DNA of 33,115 nucleotides. Origin: Escherichia coli. GTDB taxonomy: Bacteria > Pseudomonadota > Gammaproteobacteria > Enterobacterales > Enterobacteriaceae. The notes beneath the pieces were generated by a model. That model did no database searches, was not told the origin of the DNA, and saw nothing but the letters and a program-made list of their open reading frames with translations. A program made the position numbers and the translations under genes. The first letter of the stretch is position 1. Each line of letters begins with the position of its first letter. The DNA lies in NCBI RefSeq assembly GCF_003334385.1, contig NZ_QOWN01000049.1, one strand, 5' to 3'. Below are positions 9,315-18,645 of the stretch, one piece after another.

Positions 9315-10291
9315 GCAAAGAACTGTTATCCGGTACGCCACTGAAATGGGTGGGCGGAAAAAGCCGCATCATGAACACACTGAAGGCGCACCTGCCAGAA
9401 GCCGACTGTCTGGTTGAGCCGTTCGTGGGCGGCGCATCGGTATTCATGAACACCAGTTACAAGCGTTACATCCTGGGTGATTCCAATGGTGCGCTGATTA
9501 ATTTCTACCGGCAAGCTAGGGACAACACCGACAGCCTGATCGACGAGGCGAAAACCCTGTTCCTGAACCACAACAACAGGGGTGACTATCTCATCATTCG
9601 CGAAACCTTTAACGCAGAGAATCATGCCTTCCTGAACAGCAGAACGGGAATAAGCGACCGCCGTGAACTGCGACTGGCCGCCATGTTTTTGTACCTGAAC
9701 CGACACAGCTTTAACGGTTTGTTCCGCGTGAACGGAAAAGGCGATTTTAACGTGCCTTTCGGCTGCTACCGCAAGCCCTACTTCCCTGAGCGTGAAATCC
9801 GCGCATTTGCAGACAAGGCAAACAGCACCCGAACGCTGCTTATCCACGCAGATTTTAAGGATACGCTGAACTCTGCCAGTCACCTGTTCGGCATGGGCAA
9901 CACGCTTTGCGTGTACTGCGATCCCCCTTACCTGCAATTCAGTGGCCGGGACAATTTTACCGCCTACGGAAAACCATTCGATGAAGACGAGCACGTTCGT
10001 CTGAGGGCAGCGCTTGACCGCCTTTCACAGGAAACGGGCGGCATGACCAGCATCACCATCTCCAATTCCGACACACCGGAAACCAGACGCATTTATCAGG
10101 GTTACCGGATGAACACCATCCTGGCACCACGAAGCGTTGGCGCAAGAACCCGGGAATCAGCACCGGAGGTTATCGCCACCCTGAGACAGTGCGACGCCTG
10201 CGGTCGCCATGGCGGTGGCTACTGCCCGGACTGCGGACCTGTAACGGAAGATGCAACTTACAGCGCGATGTTAATCACCGCCAGTACGTAA
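9311..10291 (+). CDS. dam: DNA adenine (N6) methyltransferase, Dam family, with C-terminal Cys4 extension
   Basis: N-terminal PLKWVGGK, FVGGASVF and catalytic DPPY motif typical of Dam-family MTases; C-terminal CDACGRHGGGYCPDCGP is zinc-ribbon-like. Confidence 0.88.
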   Translation: MSKELLSGTPLKWVGGKSRIMNTLKAHLPEADCLVEPFVGGASVFMNTSYKRYILGDSNGALINFYRQARDNTDSLIDEAKTLFLNHNNRGDYLIIRETFNAENHAFLNSRTGISDRRELRLAAMFLYLNRHSFNGLFRVNGKGDFNVPFGCYRKPYFPEREIRAFADKANSTRTLLIHADFKDTLNSASHLFGMGNTLCVYCDPPYLQFSGRDNFTAYGKPFDEDEHVRLRAALDRLSQETGGMTSITISNSDTPETRRIYQGYRMNTILAPRSVGARTRESAPEVIATLRQCDACGRHGGGYCPDCGPVTEDATYSAMLITAST

Positions 10292-12229: not shown

Positions 12230-12646
12230 ATGAAGAGCGTTAAGGGACTTTCAGATATTCAGGACTTCTTTAACTGGATGTGGGCGGTGGATCCCCTGCT
12301 GGCTTCCCGCCTGAACAACTGGCACGACTACTACCGCCGCGCCTGTAAACAGGCCGCCCGCAGCATCACCACATACGGGGATTTCTCCTTCACCGTTGAC
12401 GGTCGTTACCGCGTGGACGTGAAAGGTGACGGTGATGGCTTTGGTTTATTTCACATCAACGGCACCGACAGTACCGCCATCAGCTGGTCATCGTCAGAGA
12501 TGGCACTGGTTCTGGAAATGACAACCCACAGCGTGGCCGTGAAAGGCATATACACCGCAGAAGACTTTATCGGTGAATACCAGCGCCTTCTCGTGCTGTA
12601 CCGCGCGGCGTTTCAGGAGGTCACTGGCGGGGAGTACGACGCATGA
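12230..12646 (+). CDS. Hypothetical protein (138 aa) preceding replication gene A
   Basis: ATG 12230 with ggagg RBS; stop overlaps the A start (ATGA). Confidence 0.6.
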   Translation: MKSVKGLSDIQDFFNWMWAVDPLLASRLNNWHDYYRRACKQAARSITTYGDFSFTVDGRYRVDVKGDGDGFGLFHINGTDSTAISWSSSEMALVLEMTTHSVAVKGIYTAEDFIGEYQRLLVLYRAAFQEVTGGEYDA

Positions 12647-15156
12647 GTGACCGCAATGCACAGCTGGCGTACCCGTGGAACGCACCGCTACCGGTTATCG
12701 ATCCTGAAACGTTCGGCAGAGCACAACCAACCGCATTACGCCAGGCCATTCAGAGCTACATCAACGAGGACATTCGCATTGATGCCAGACTGGATGAAGA
12801 AACCGTCTCCTTCCTGACAAACACAGACGAAGGCAAGCGAATTAATTCGCATCTTCACCACGACGAAGAGCGTCGGGTCAGACTGGAAAAACTGGCGAAG
12901 CACAAACGCGAGAATCCGCCCACGGTGGTATCGGAAGCCATGGCAGAACTTCGCGCCCTGCCCTCGTTTCTTGCCAGTCCGCTCATCCGGGACCTGGCTC
13001 GCCTGAGCCGCAAACAGGAGAGCGCACGCCGGGAAGGGCTTAAGAATAACAGCGCATATGCGGCGGATAACTTCGTTCGTCATGGGCTGCGTGCCCGCCT
13101 GAAACGTATCGCCCGTGTGAATGAACGCTTTGCCACCCCGGCCTTTAAGGCCACCGCCGCCCGCGAACGGCTGGATGAACTGCTTATACTGCCGCAGCTG
13201 AGCCGTGACGAAATCCAGCACCTTGCCACCCTGACCGCCACCGCGTTTTCCGCCGCACTGGAGCGCGCATGTGATGAGATCATCGAAAAGACCGGCAGGG
13301 GTGACGATGACCTGTTCACCTGGTTACTGACCTACCAGTCACTGGCACACATGGCGTTAAAACTGGGTATCACGCCACCCTGCTGGCCGTCGCTGGAAAT
13401 CAGGCCAGACCGCCGCACCGCCCCCAACCCGGAACGGGTGCCGGGTGCGGTCATGCGCCTTTCCTGTGCGACATGGTGGAACAGTCAGTTAAGACACCTC
13501 CGGGACATCTGGCGTGAAGAGCTGTTACGCGCCGCAGGTCTGGTGTCACGTAAGACATCGGTATATATCAGCCATGAAGCGTTACTGGACTGGCGCGAAA
13601 AACGCCAGCGCACCCGCGATTTTCTGAAGGCCTGGGACATCGAGAACGAAGAGGGAGAACGGTTCAGCCTTGAGGATATCTACTGGGCAGGTCTCTCTAA
13701 TCCGCGTAACCGCCGTAACGAGATGATGACCTGCGCCCGGGGAATGGAGCAGGTCGCCGAAGCACGCGGCGACGTGGCGTTTTTCGTCACCGTCACAGCC
13801 CCTTCCCGTTTTCACAGCGTGAACGATGACGGCAGTCTGAACCCGAAATACTGCGGGGCAACGGTACGCGATGCCAGTGATTATCTGGTTTACCGCTTTT
13901 TCGCCGCCGTCCGCAGGGCCATCGACAAGGCCGGGCTGGGCTGGTACGGCGTGCGCACAGTGGAGCCCCACCACGACGGTACACCGCACTGGCACATGCT
14001 GGTATTCACCAGCCAGGAAAACGAAGCCCGTATCACTGAAATCATGCGCAACGCCGCCATCAGGGAGGACCGCGCAGAGCTGGGTGATGATATCTCCCCG
14101 CGTTTTAAATGCGAAAAAATCGACCCGGCAAAAGGCACACCGACAAGCTATATCGCGACCTATATCGGTAAGAACCTGGACGCCAGCGCCTTCATGGGAA
14201 ATGACCCGAAAACCGGCAAACCTTACATCGATAAGGAATCAGGCAAAACCATGGCCGAAACCGTGGAGAACGCCATCGGCTGGGCAGGCCTTCACCGCAT
14301 CCACCAGTTCCAGTTCTTCGGTATCCCGCCCCGCCAGGTATGGCGCGAACTCCGCCGCCTTGCCGGGCAGATGGCCCGTAACCCGACTGCCCCACAGCGT
14401 CTGGACCATGACGACATTGACGCCATACTGGCCGCCGCCGACGTGGGATGTTTTGCCACCTATATCACCCGCCAGGGTGGTGTGCTCATTCCCCGCAACA
14501 CGTACCTGGTCCGCACCGCATACGAAACTGCCGAAGAGGCCAACGACTACGGCGAATTCCCGCAACGCATTTACGGCGTCCGCGCCCCGTTACTCGGGGA
14601 GCGCTACACCATATGCACCCACCCGGACACCTGGAAACTGGTCAGACGTAAGCCGGAAAACGAAGACCGCACGGACGAGGGTTTTGACGTTGAGTGCGGC
14701 TTTGCCGCACCTTGGACTCGTGGCAATAACTGTCCCCATGATGAAAAAACAGACACCGGAGAGGGTAAAACCCCACCACCGGAAACCAGGAAAGAACAAA
14801 AACTGGTCGTCCCGGGAGGTGATTTGGGTGAGTGGTTAAGGTCACTGACCCCCACAGAGCGAAAACAACTCACCAGGCAGCTGAAAGATGCGCCATCTGA
14901 CACAAAAACCGTGAAAACCGGCGGCCCCACCACGCCCGATGACGTCATACATGTGCGTACAGCATTGCCGCTGACTGACGTCACCACCACCGTAATCAAG
15001 TCGGCACTGAGCGCGACGGGCGAGGAGCTACACAGTGGCGCAGCACTTTCCGTACACAGAGGTGCACGCGTTCGCCTGCCTGACGGGCGGATTGTGCACT
15101 GGGATGAGAAATCACGAAGCCTGGTGGCAGCAGATCAACCGGAGGTGAACCCATGA
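12643..15156 (+). CDS. A: Rolling-circle replication initiation endonuclease, P2 gpA family
   Basis: 837 aa with HUH motif (TPHWHMLVF) and paired active-site tyrosines (YIATYIGK) characteristic of P2 A / phiX174 gpA-type nickases. Confidence 0.9.
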   Translation: MSDRNAQLAYPWNAPLPVIDPETFGRAQPTALRQAIQSYINEDIRIDARLDEETVSFLTNTDEGKRINSHLHHDEERRVRLEKLAKHKRENPPTVVSEAMAELRALPSFLASPLIRDLARLSRKQESARREGLKNNSAYAADNFVRHGLRARLKRIARVNERFATPAFKATAARERLDELLILPQLSRDEIQHLATLTATAFSAALERACDEIIEKTGRGDDDLFTWLLTYQSLAHMALKLGITPPCWPSLEIRPDRRTAPNPERVPGAVMRLSCATWWNSQLRHLRDIWREELLRAAGLVSRKTSVYISHEALLDWREKRQRTRDFLKAWDIENEEGERFSLEDIYWAGLSNPRNRRNEMMTCARGMEQVAEARGDVAFFVTVTAPSRFHSVNDDGSLNPKYCGATVRDASDYLVYRFFAAVRRAIDKAGLGWYGVRTVEPHHDGTPHWHMLVFTSQENEARITEIMRNAAIREDRAELGDDISPRFKCEKIDPAKGTPTSYIATYIGKNLDASAFMGNDPKTGKPYIDKESGKTMAETVENAIGWAGLHRIHQFQFFGIPPRQVWRELRRLAGQMARNPTAPQRLDHDDIDAILAAADVGCFATYITRQGGVLIPRNTYLVRTAYETAEEANDYGEFPQRIYGVRAPLLGERYTICTHPDTWKLVRRKPENEDRTDEGFDVECGFAAPWTRGNNCPHDEKTDTGEGKTPPPETRKEQKLVVPGGDLGEWLRSLTPTERKQLTRQLKDAPSDTKTVKTGGPTTPDDVIHVRTALPLTDVTTTVIKSALSATGEELHSGAALSVHRGARVRLPDGRIVHWDEKSRSLVAADQPEVNP

Positions 15157-15557
15157 CACGATTCCATTGTGTACTCCAGCGCCATGATTTCAGCGCCATC
15201 ATGAGTGGACGCATTCCCGCACTGACGCTGAGCGGCGTCAGTGTTCGACCACAGCCAGGCGACGAACTGGAGATCACGATCGCAAACCCCGATCGCAGCA
15301 CAGATACCGTCATGACCGACATCCTGACTGCAAGAATCAACACCGACAGAAGCGCATTCATCGTTGCCGTGCGCCCTCGTCGCGCCATATCAGAGCCTGA
15401 ACCACTGACTCCCGTAGGAAAAATCATGCAGGCATACCACGAAAAACAGACCAGAAAACTCAACGAAGAACTGGCAAGAACGCTGGCCGTCGTTAACCGA
15501 AAAGCGGCAATTGTCCGCTATGTGCATTCGGCCGCCAGCAGGCAATCACGCAGGTAA
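15153..15557 (+). CDS. Hypothetical protein (134 aa), coupled to A
   Basis: ATGA overlap with the A stop; no domain recognised. Confidence 0.6.
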   Translation: MTRFHCVLQRHDFSAIMSGRIPALTLSGVSVRPQPGDELEITIANPDRSTDTVMTDILTARINTDRSAFIVAVRPRRAISEPEPLTPVGKIMQAYHEKQTRKLNEELARTLAVVNRKAAIVRYVHSAASRQSRR

Positions 15558-15605
15558 CAAAAGACCATGAACATGACCAGAAACAGCAAACCGAAGGAGC
15601 ACACC

Positions 15606-15776
15606 ATGAACGACATCAGGAGGATCAGCGACAAAGAGCTTACGAAAATGATTGAGTCGGCGCAGCAGCTGCTTTCACGACGAAATCCGGTTGTGGAAGA
15701 AACATGGTGGGAAAATTTACTGACAGCACTGACCGAACTCCGCGAACGCCGGAACAACGAAGGAGCCGCCAAATGA
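15606..15776 (+). CDS. Hypothetical small protein (56 aa)
   Basis: ATG 15606 (MNDIRRIS...) with aaggag RBS 7 nt upstream; the track ORF starts at 15567; stop overlaps the next start. Confidence 0.5.
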   Translation: MNDIRRISDKELTKMIESAQQLLSRRNPVVEETWWENLLTALTELRERRNNEGAAK

Positions 15777-16111
15777 AGACACCCAGAATGACCGGAAAGG
15801 TAATCATTTTACGCTACCTGGAAACGCACGCACGCTTCAGCGCACCAGAGCTGGTTGAAAAACTGGGCGTGAAAAGGACCATCATTAATCAGGCCGCCGG
15901 AAAGATGGTACGCGAAGGGCTGCTGGTTGTGGACGGGTACACGGACAAGATAACGCATTACCGGAAGCCAACGGAAAAGGAACGACTGGAGCTGGCGCAA
16001 CGGGCAGAATGGCAACAAGAGCCGTCCGTAATTGAAGCCTGCAAGCGCAGCGAAATCATGAAGAGAATTCTGTTTATCTACGGCGCTGGCGAAGAGCTGC
16101 CAGTCATCTAA
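15773..16111 (+). CDS. Winged-helix DNA-binding protein (MarR/PadR-like), hypothetical
   Basis: ATG 15773 with aggag RBS; segment FSAPELVEKLGVKRTIINQAAGKMVREGLLVV has a wHTH pattern. Confidence 0.5.
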   Translation: MKTPRMTGKVIILRYLETHARFSAPELVEKLGVKRTIINQAAGKMVREGLLVVDGYTDKITHYRKPTEKERLELAQRAEWQQEPSVIEACKRSEIMKRILFIYGAGEELPVI

Positions 16112-16143
16112 CCCCAACAATAAAACCAACACGGGAGACAAAT

Positions 16144-16461
16144 ATGCCAACACAGGTTGCAACAGAGGGACGACTGGCAGCAGACCCGAACACAAGGAGA
16201 ACAACCAAAGGAACCAACGTCACAACGGCACAACTGGCGGTATCACTACCCTGCCATGGCGCAGAACAGCCAACCACAATGTGGCTTTACCTTATTTCAT
16301 TCGGGAAGCAGCACGAAGAACTGGCAAAACACAGAAAAGGCGATCTGATTCTGGTGCACGGAAACTTGCAGGTAAACAGGTATCAGGACAAGTACGGGCA
16401 ACAGAAAGAGAGCTGGCAGTTGCTGGCGCAAAGCATTATCAGCTCAAGAACCGGGCGATGA
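16144..16461 (+). CDS. SSB-like OB-fold protein (105 aa, lacks C-terminal acidic tail)
   Basis: Aligns in pattern to the N-terminal OB fold of bacterial SSB (G-L..DP..R....G..V....LAVS...W....FGK..E.....KG....V.G.L....Y.D..GQ); gggaga RBS; followed by an intrinsic terminator. Confidence 0.6.
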   Translation: MPTQVATEGRLAADPNTRRTTKGTNVTTAQLAVSLPCHGAEQPTTMWLYLISFGKQHEELAKHRKGDLILVHGNLQVNRYQDKYGQQKESWQLLAQSIISSRTGR

Positions 16462-16471
16462 CTTCACGCAT

Positions 16472-16511
16472 GTTACCCTCAGCAGCGAGGGTAACACAGG
16501 ATTTCTTTTTT
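16472..16511 (+). terminator. Rho-independent terminator ending the early/replication operon
   Basis: Perfect 9-bp stem gttaccctc / gagggtaac with a 6-nt loop, followed a few nt downstream by a T-tract (tttcttttttt). Confidence 0.6.
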
Positions 16512-17047
16512 CAGTCAAACCGAAATCGGCCGCTTGTCGCGTATGCATAGGTGACCACCGCACCCAGCGCATTCACACGCTTCTTCACATAAATCACATT
16601 ACCATCCTGATAGTCACCGTATGGGTAGCAAATAAATATTGTTTTTTGCAAATCAGGATCATCAACAAATGCCCCTGAACAACTTTTTGAGCTACCGCGA
16701 CTGTACTCATAGGGAGCGGAATAGAATGAATCTTCACCCGGAAGAAAATATATCAGCGTAACCAGGAGGGTAAACAGAATCATCCAGGTAAGAAGGCACA
16801 TACCCGAAAAAAACTTAAGATACGATGTAACCCCGGTAAATTTAGACCGATCAACCAGGTTCTTTTTCAACAGGCACAGTGAGGCAAAAACCGAAAGCAC
16901 CACAGACACTGAAACAAGGCAGTTTGTCGTGAACGAATAAAGGTAGGTAATTCTGTAAACATCGTTTCGCCACCAAATAAAAAGAAAAATCCCCCCCAAA
17001 ACAGAAAGCGTGACAAAAGTTAAATAAGGATATGAGTAATTTTTCAC
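16511..17047 (-). CDS. Hypothetical multi-pass membrane protein (AT-rich cargo gene at the tin/old position)
   Basis: Low-GC ORF with three hydrophobic helices (YLTFVTLSVLGGIFLFIWW, CLVSVSVVLSVFASLCLL, MCLLTWMILFTLLVTLIYFL) and a ~75-aa C-terminal soluble region; start uncertain (GTG 17047 after ggtgag, or ATG 16801). Confidence 0.4.
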   Translation of the reverse strand: MKNYSYPYLTFVTLSVLGGIFLFIWWRNDVYRITYLYSFTTNCLVSVSVVLSVFASLCLLKKNLVDRSKFTGVTSYLKFFSGMCLLTWMILFTLLVTLIYFLPGEDSFYSAPYEYSRGSSKSCSGAFVDDPDLQKTIFICYPYGDYQDGNVIYVKKRVNALGAVVTYAYATSGRFRFD

Positions 17048-17601
17048 AGTTCTCACCCGGCAATACACCACTGATTCAGACAGATGATTATCATCACCAC
17101 CCACCCCCAAAAATCGCAAGATAAAAAATGCACAAAAGCGCACGAAATTGCACAATTTTTCTTATGTGTTTCATCCCCATTCAGCCCAGTAACGGCGCTG
17201 GCTGAGGCCGGTTTGCACGGTGCACGAAAAACGAGGCAATTGCAGTGCGCAGGCGACGAGGGAAGGGCGCCCGAATTGAGGGGTGGAAGGCAGGTTGCTT
17301 TATTTGGGGTCGTATTGCGCGTGATACGCACGCAGTGAAGCCGGTTCTGAAAAAACCACACCGAAACAGAGTCAGAAAAACAGGCCGCCAGAATGCGTCT
17401 GGTTGAGTTTTACGGGGTCGGGATTAAATGCGGAAACATCACACCGCAGGCATGACGCGAAAAAGAGAAAAACCACAGCAAAACATAATGTTAAATGTTA
17501 TTGATGAGTTGAGAAGCGAAAGGTGTATTGCGTTGACAGAGCTGGAGAGTCGGGGCATAAATTTTTTATGCCCCGGCGAAGCAGCCGACAAGCGAAGCGC
17601 G

Positions 17602-18645
17602 TCAGCTGGCGCCATCCTGAAGCAGCGAATAGGGATTAAAGCGCATCACTTCAACCCCAAGCCATTCATTGACATGCTTCATCGCTTCCATGACCGGTTG
17701 CAACTCGTTGATGAAAAATACCCTCGCCGCCTTCTCAACGTCACCGAACGCCGCGTTCCCGTCAGGCATTGCCCCCATCAGCTGAGGCGGTACACGGTGA
17801 GCCGCAAGGATATCGTCGCGGGCACTCCCCTTGATGTTAAGGAATTCGTCCTTCGCGGTGATTTGCTGGAACGGCAGTATTTGCACACCATCCTTGCCGC
17901 CACCTGGCGCGTGCAGAAGGATATTGCGGAACGCCCCCTTGCCACGGGATTCCGTGAGTGTTTTCTTGATGGCTTCCACGCTTTCAGCGTTTGCCTGGGC
18001 GGCACCAACATAGACAATGCACCCGGCATGTGAACCGTTGTCATAGTAGAGCTTGCGGAACGTATCCGCTGAGTTCGACAGACTCACCGACAGCAACCCA
18101 CCGATATACTCCGGCATCCCGTAGATTTCCTGGTTGATATCGGGGTTCAGAACGTGGCACACAGCCCCCTTACGGAAAGCAAATTCAGAACCATCATCAT
18201 TGAGGTACCAGTACGTATCGAGATCACTGCCCCGCCGCGTGTATTTCGCCAGCGCAGGACGAAGCGCAATGGGTTCACCGAACTTGTTGCGGCGGACTTC
18301 AAGATAGGCATTACCGAACACGAACCAGTCCAGCGCAAACGCGGAAAACGCCTGGCGGGACAGTAGCGGATGAGGAACAAAGCAGCCGTTCAGGGCATTA
18401 CGCTTAAAATACAGGGCCGACTGGTGCCATGATGCACAACGCGAGGCGCGAGCAATGGCATTCCAGTCCATGGGGGTGTCATAGTAGCGGCCATTATCGG
18501 CGCACGACATGTTATCAAGCAGATCAAGACGGCTTGCTTCATAAGGACCGTCAAACGTGAAAGCACTGAGTGACGGCGCTGATTTCAGTGCATCAGCCAG
18601 TGAGCCCGTGCCGCGCTTTCCGGTGTATTTTTTACGTTTACTCAT
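17602..18645 (-). CDS. Q: Portal protein, P2 gpQ family
   Basis: 347 aa, size and position matching P2 Q; immediately followed on the same strand by the large terminase. Confidence 0.88.
   Translation of the reverse strand: MSKRKKYTGKRGTGSLADALKSAPSLSAFTFDGPYEASRLDLLDNMSCADNGRYYDTPMDWNAIARASRCASWHQSALYFKRNALNGCFVPHPLLSRQAFSAFALDWFVFGNAYLEVRRNKFGEPIALRPALAKYTRRGSDLDTYWYLNDDGSEFAFRKGAVCHVLNPDINQEIYGMPEYIGGLLSVSLSNSADTFRKLYYDNGSHAGCIVYVGAAQANAESVEAIKKTLTESRGKGAFRNILLHAPGGGKDGVQILPFQQITAKDEFLNIKGSARDDILAAHRVPPQLMGAMPDGNAAFGDVEKAARVFFINELQPVMEAMKHVNEWLGVEVMRFNPYSLLQDGAS

Follow-up and report, generated by a model that had tools for sequence, protein, structure and literature searches.

The 33,115-nucleotide stretch of DNA analysed here (the window) is a segment of an Escherichia coli chromosome that has dmsA at its left end and carries a P2-like prophage. 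The prophage genes in the window encode the replication endonuclease gpA, a portal protein, the large terminase, a capsid scaffold protein and a P2-family major capsid protein. The gpA gene (12643..15156, + strand, 837 amino acids; identified by tblastn and by its PGAP name) heads a run of co-directional genes. Its closest match in the P2 family is P88/Xuanwuvirus (52% identity by tblastn), and P88 is also among the closest matches in GenBank phage records (52-53%). Following gpA on the same strand are orf134 (15153..15557, phrog_14984), which is conserved together with gpA in this lineage, orf69 (15567..15776, phrog_14672), a Ren-like gene for a MarR-type winged-helix protein (15773..16111) and a gene encoding a protein of 105 amino acids (16144..16461, stop codon included). 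[quoted passage not shown] On the 5′ side of gene A, a prophage of this type (L001, 1647-3442) carries further accessory genes for DNA metabolism, annotated by PGAP as a 3′-5′ exonuclease, a ParE-family toxin-like protein and a Dam-type DNA adenine methylase; P2 itself is without them.

The SSB-like gene begins with ATG, and a Shine-Dalgarno-like GGGAG (16133..16137, + strand) can be read 6 nt upstream of this codon. Its product is matched by the Pfam SSB family PF00436 (i-E=1.6e-14), with residues 4-98 covering model positions 3-101 of 104, and by PHROG 44, annotated as single strand DNA binding protein (E=4.7e-24). Sixteen NCBIfam SSB models match as well. The best of these is TIGR00621, at 50.1 bits, which is just below its curated cut-off of 53.95 bits. 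By sequence, 26 solved SSB chains are matched (best E=4.4e-10). The homology of the 105 amino acid product to SSBs is far beyond chance, and PGAP/RefSeq already names it a single-stranded DNA-binding protein.

A first-pass annotation of this DNA had proposed an SSB-type OB fold and named structure prediction as the way to check it. The AlphaFold2 model, built from an alignment of 89 sequences, confirms the fold with high confidence (pLDDT 94.3, pTM 0.83) and shows the strand and helix order of an OB fold. The top Foldseek matches are exclusively N-terminal domains of bacterial SSBs (TM 0.74-0.82), among them that of E. coli (1eyg), and one of the best is Staphylococcus aureus SsbB (TM 0.81-0.82).

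The protein resembles the canonical bacterial SSB (PF00436, E. coli SSB type) in its OB fold, in the order of its secondary structure elements and in several DNA contact residues, and the two are clearly homologous at 27-29% identity. In the alignment with E. coli SSB, W47, F53 and Y80 correspond to W54, F60 and W88, so that three of the four stacking aromatics are retained. The equivalent of W40 is missing, loop L23 is four residues shorter, and the position of H55, which is critical for tetramer formation in E. coli, is occupied by leucine. W47 and F53 are conserved in at least 90% of the 89 relatives, and all three aromatics are invariant in the eight sequences of the immediate clade. A linker-fused two-copy construct, used as a proxy for self-association, was modelled with its two OB domains confidently packed (pTM 0.78). 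In the PDB it comes closest to the two-OB SSB chains of Thermus and Deinococcus, at TM scores of only 0.46-0.58 and rmsd of 6.2-9.7 Å, and it hints weakly at an SSB-like self-association.

The most obvious difference from canonical SSBs is at the C-terminus. The protein has neither the disordered linker nor the acidic D-D-D-I/L-P-F tip of the SSB family. It ends in ...SIISSRTGR, exactly where the Pro/Gly linker of its relatives begins; past ...SARTVRPGG, the nearest of these continue with a Pro/Gly-rich linker of 25-60 amino acids and an FDDxxPF tip. There is no acidic residue among the last 15, in agreement with the earlier description of the protein as lacking an acidic tail, and the predicted pI is 9.73, compared with 5.45 for full-length E. 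coli SSB. A search for a remnant of the acidic tip downstream of the gene, in any frame and allowing for frameshifts, found none. Every intact allele of the clade, down to 74% identity, has the same end point.

We compared the eight clade alleles, which come from E. coli genomes, IMG/VR contigs and Logan assemblies. Their protein sequences diverge by as much as 26%, but the length is 105 amino acids throughout, and the substitutions are concentrated in residues 2-32. Allele pairs with dS of 0.33-0.85 have dN/dS values of 0.17-0.35; the 105 amino acid form is under purifying selection. With the invariant DNA contact aromatics, these ratios make it unlikely that the gene is a fresh pseudogene. 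Judged by the constant length and the dN/dS values, the tail-less form is maintained and not freshly broken.

The wider family was collected by an exhaustive HMMER search, which returned 2,775 relatives at E ≤ 1e-3; below 1e-30 it recovered members of the gene's own cluster only. A word-indexed protein search gave just nine close relatives, and the tailed relatives were reached by the exhaustive search. The next-best relatives are 43-48% identical and 127-172 amino acids long; these short SSBs are encoded by integrative elements and prophages. Among the tailed relatives that come nearest, the SSB gene usually lies directly after the replication initiator, behind Toprim primase/helicase genes. 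Most likely, the SSB-like gene of the window derives from such a mobile-element SSB by loss of the disordered linker and the acidic C-terminal tip.

At 47% identity, the closest relative with a tail is P0010 (locus L007, 1033-6221). It is encoded after a Zn-ribbon/Toprim/DUF927 primase gene, with PerC and SocA_Panacea genes behind it, and this locus looks like a replication module of a satellite or integrative element rather than a P2-like phage.

Forms that consist of the OB domain only are found elsewhere in the family. Among the 150 best matches, 18 of the 114 cluster representatives with a full OB domain are of this kind, most of them with tailed nearest neighbours; several of the metagenomic ones may be assembly truncations, and three were checked and are internal to their contigs. 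One metagenomic mobile element (L010) encodes a tailed SSB of 172 amino acids ending in ...NDDLPF (4628-5146) and, 1.7 kb downstream of it, an OB-only SSB-like ORF of 107 amino acids (6810-7133; HMM E=3.4e-11, no Pfam match on record). Both genes adjoin a Toprim/AAA_25 primase-helicase gene.

OB-only paralogs are also known from cellular genomes. Bacillus subtilis SsbB, a competence protein of 113 amino acids that still binds ssDNA, has no partner-docking tail (PMC3384303), and the Anabaena proteins Alr0088 and Alr7579 contain the OB domain only and bind ssDNA (PMC3976300). Like these, the window protein is an SSB-derived, OB-only protein of about 105-115 amino acids without a docking tail, and it fits the definition of a tail-less, SsbB-type SSB paralog in that the OB domain is the whole protein and is kept by selection. 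Unlike SsbB and the Anabaena paralogs, which are chromosomal and have cellular roles such as the protection of incoming DNA, it is phage-borne and lies in a rolling-circle replication operon. It arose separately from them, out of the SSB lineage of proteobacterial mobile elements.

PriB of the beta- and gamma-proteobacteria (104 amino acids) is similar in size, in its single OB domain, in the lack of a tail and in its origin from SSB. We rejected an identity with PriB: there was no BLASTP match to E. coli PriB at E ≤ 10, the alignment identity is 18%, and no NCBIfam PriB model matched. The window protein groups with SSBs and not with PriB.

The layout of the region places the SSB-like gene in the early operon. 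It is separated from the stop codon of the Ren-like gene by 32 bp, and a consensus scan of the + strand found no promoter-like site between 15000 and 17700 and no terminator-like site between 15000 and the gene. A putative intrinsic terminator of the operon follows it (16471..16511, + strand), with a G+C-rich 10-bp stem (16471-16480 / 16487-16496), a 5-nt spacer and the T-tract TTTCTTTTTT (16502-16511). The predicted folding energy is -19.9 kcal/mol (z=-3.4), and one of 200 shuffled sequences folded equally well. The first-pass annotation had called this terminator strong, which the hairpin, T-tract and folding energy make plausible; it escaped the simple consensus terminator scan, as the T-run begins more than 2 nt past the stem. 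An Rfam search of 15000-17800 returned nothing. Given the short gap, the lack of a promoter-like site of its own and the hairpin with its T-tract, the co-directional SSB-like gene is by layout the last of the early, gpA-headed operon, as had been suggested.

The gene directly upstream, found next to the SSB-like gene in every one of the 27 E. coli genomes with the latter, encodes a protein assigned to phrog_142, Ren-like exclusion protein (E=1.3e-28), and named MarR family by PGAP. This product shares 39-40% identity with the Ren proteins of phage 21, H-19B and Stx phages, lambdoid phages in which ren comes after the replication genes O and P. Ren is annotated as an anti-exclusion protein. We did not expect a Ren homolog at the close of a P2-type replication operon.

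Beyond the hairpin, a gene of the opposite strand (16511..17218, - strand) converges on the operon. It lies outside the SSB unit and encodes a hydrophobic protein of 214-235 amino acids, of which the C-terminal 90 amino acids alone match phrog_1416, a PHROG of unknown function. It gave no Pfam or PADLOC match, it is A+T-rich, with a G+C content of 0.423 (the SSB-like gene has 0.516 and the prophage mean is 0.53), and it is by position a candidate exclusion gene. The corresponding slot between the SSB-like and portal genes is filled in sister prophages by unrelated genes, either DUF4760 or a TumE + HVO_A0114 pair, and by tin and old in P2, where both lie on the minus strand. The SSB-like gene is constant across these three unrelated cargo sets. 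In DNA alignments, homology between prophage versions gives out within the final one to three codons of this gene or directly past the hairpin. The statement that the gene sits directly beside cargo in the tin/old position is therefore borne out by the unrelated genes of the sister prophages, by the homology break at the end of the gene and by the place of tin and old in P2.

Tin and Old of P2 are prophage-expressed exclusion proteins in a convergent variable slot, and in the window the slot of this kind begins at the stop codon of the SSB-like gene. The P2 genes are on the opposite strand and have their own mapped transcript start, whereas the SSB-like gene runs with the early operon. With P2 Orf91, whose gene closes the early operon behind A in that phage, the likeness is in position only; no similarity of the SSB-like protein to Orf91 or to Tin was found.

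The first-pass annotation had left undecided whether the gene is backbone or cargo, and had suggested asking whether an equivalent ORF after A is conserved in P2 and 186. It is not conserved: gene A is followed by Orf91 and then the convergent tin and old in P2, by tum / orf97 in 186, and by ParM-type genes in P88, and none of the three has an SSB gene there. The block of orf134, orf69 and Ren-like genes was found in 33 of 5,426 complete RefSeq E. coli genomes, and 27 of these 33 also have the SSB-like gene, which are all the genomes of the set in which it occurs. In IMG/VR, surveyed by a gpA-based locus scan and an HMM scan of 101 loci, 1 of 80 gpA-bearing loci has the SSB-like gene, and it comes from this prophage's own close lineage. 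There is no close DNA or protein match (E ≤ 1e-5) in 50,697 GenBank phage records, so the clade of the SSB-like gene is not represented among isolated phages. At E ≤ 1 these records yield matches of about 30-34% identity only, to unrelated phage SSBs.

Several natural variants lack the gene or carry a damaged copy. The prophage of strain JNEC-KY176 is syntenic with that of LZSFT34 in the A operon, the TumE/HVO_A0114 cargo and the portal gene, but the SSB-like gene is cleanly absent; the two form a near-isogenic pair that differs by the gene and about 170 bp (L103, 4460-4575, JNEC-KY176, versus L104, 4460-5056, LZSFT34). In the 2013C-3033 prophage type, the MarR-like gene is directly followed by ogr and portal, without the SSB-like gene. 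In a sister prophage from IMG/VR with an 85% identical gpA (L023), one ORF (9483-9821, + strand) stands in place of both the SSB-like gene and the cargo; it encodes 112 amino acids with two CxxC motifs and resembles a ClpX-type zinc ribbon. A small gene with a similar annotation is also present in the A-portal interval of P88. Another locus (L016, 3696-5385) has the SSB-like gene split after about codon 25 by an IS3-family element of about 1.25 kb (orfA 100 amino acids, orfB 272 amino acids).

Two loci (L002, 6898-7155, strain Bongo; L017, 568-822) have an in-frame deletion of 60 bp, by which residues 13-32, part of the OB core, are lost and an 85 amino acid product is left. The deletion is flanked by short direct repeats, as read by eye, and a matching BLAST pattern points to a third copy of this allele in JNEC-KY174. 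At both loci the terminator stem is retained around a different loop, and the sequence diverges directly past the stem. PGAP still names the 85 amino acid product an SSB.

The SSB-like gene is dispensable in nature, with absent, replaced, IS-split and deleted variants all on record. It is selected when present and is not required for persistence of the prophage. We do not regard it as P2 backbone because P2, 186 and P88 carry other genes after A and a single one of the 80 gpA loci has it, nor as fast-swapping cargo because it is kept with three cargo sets, has a backbone-like G+C content and lacks a promoter-like site of its own. The description that fits best is that of an optional accessory gene, specific to this lineage, at the far end of the early operon. 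The alternative of a conserved replication accessory, raised in the first-pass annotation, is nearer the truth, although the natural null variants show that the gene is not required.

The interval between gpA and gpQ in P2-like prophages is a defence hotspot (Rousset et al. 2022, PMC9122126). The SSB-like protein of the sister prophage, WP_016232588, appears as SSB in Table S5 of that study, which gives gpA-gpQ arrangements, with no functional test there. A literature search brought up nothing specific on an SSB of a P2-like phage, and this uncharacterised table entry is the sole trace of one. The SSB annotation itself is known; what is new here is a tail-less SSB paralog in the setting of a P2-like prophage, where it had not been discussed before. 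For the parsing of the gpA-gpQ hotspot, this clarifies that not all genes of the interval are cargo, as the SSB-like gene belongs to the early operon.

We favour a reading, to which we give an even chance, in which the protein is a lytic-phase ssDNA coat that is unable to recruit host partners and is an optional helper of this lineage, not an essential replication protein. Transcribed last in the early operon, the gene would be expressed in lytic growth or upon induction and not in the lysogen. As a small basic OB-fold protein, its product would bind ssDNA and probably coat the strand that is displaced or exposed during gpA-initiated rolling-circle replication. Lacking a tail, it would be unable to dock tip-binding host proteins such as exonuclease I, RecQ, RecO, PriA or the chi subunit of the polymerase. 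The reading takes up the fold, the missing tail, the kept contact residues, the purifying selection, the operon position and the natural dispensability as they were found; we infer the timing of expression, the binding, the oligomeric state and the benefit to the phage. We also count in its favour that in the tailed relatives the SSB gene usually lies directly after the replication initiator.

Several points count against such a coat. P2-type phages replicate with the host SSB and can do without one of their own, and P2, 186 and P88 have none. The variants with an absent, replaced, split or internally deleted gene weigh in the same direction, as do the missing W40 equivalent and the leucine in place of H55. 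In cellular SSBs, the tail is needed for replication functions, so a tail-less coat could hinder replication rather than help it.

In the main rival reading, the protein would serve counter-defence or host takeover and not replication. It may compete with the host SSB on phage ssDNA, or co-assemble with it into tetramers and so lower the number of tails, acting as an antagonist of the host protein or as a stealth coat that keeps away tail-recruited nucleases and helicases, or immune systems that detect phage SSBs or the tips of SSBs. We think this rather unlikely, but several observations are consistent with it: the sole domain that has been lost is the one that recruits partners, and that state is under purifying selection; OB-only forms recur among the full-OB representatives, with the reservation already made for metagenomic truncations; and the tailed SSB with a separate OB-only paralog on the metagenomic element suggests distinct roles for the two. 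The neighbouring gene is a homolog of Ren, with its anti-exclusion annotation, and recent reports describe phage SSBs and SSB-like proteins with C-tips that activate the defence systems Retron-Eco8, DARNA and DRT10. Mixed tetramers are doubtful, however, at the low identity to E. coli SSB and with H55 replaced by leucine, and no defence or anti-defence model matches the protein. A functionless remnant, in which recombination at the hotspot boundary removed the 3′ end of an SSB gene that is now drifting to loss, would account for a truncation point that falls on the junction where the variable slot recombines, for the existence of loss, IS-disrupted and internal-deletion alleles and for a TIGR00621 score just under the cut-off. 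The low dN/dS over dS values of up to 0.85, the invariant contact aromatics and the constant length across divergent alleles are at odds with drift, as are the intact Shine-Dalgarno sequence and start codon and the confident fold prediction, and we judge a remnant improbable.

The first-pass annotation had also suggested that the protein might be a decoy or exclusion factor, which, expressed from the prophage in the manner of Tin and Old, would act on the replication of superinfecting phages. The position within the gpA-gpQ defence hotspot, where the sister protein is tabulated as SSB, and a presence/absence polymorphism like that of accessory genes could be read in this way. The gene is not arranged like tin and old, though: it is co-directional with the early operon, close behind its upstream neighbour and without a promoter-like site in the consensus scan, whereas tin and old have the opposite strand and a transcript start of their own. 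It is kept with three cargo sets, its own stop codon being the point of exchange; its G+C content is that of the backbone and not that of the cargo, and it has no match among the PADLOC defence models and no similarity to Tin. The suggestion gained no positive support from these comparisons, the layout predicts lytic expression, and we consider it very improbable.

In a broader version of the stealth-coat reading, loss of the tail would be an adaptive and recurrent strategy of temperate phages and mobile elements, and the OB-only coat and the Ren homolog would together make up a module for counter-defence that borders on the P2 defence hotspot. This extension is a long shot. If it is true, the coat would cover the ssDNA of the element, deny access to tail-dependent host nucleases and helicases, and escape or blunt immunity triggered by phage SSBs or their C-tips. 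It is becoming apparent that defence systems are commonly triggered by SSBs, and the gene would gain in importance if tail-less phage SSBs have a dedicated role in shielding ssDNA from tail-recruited enzymes or from SSB-sensing immunity. Natural near-isogenic material is at hand in LZSFT34 (gene present) and JNEC-KY176 (gene absent), along with the IS-split and internally deleted alleles.
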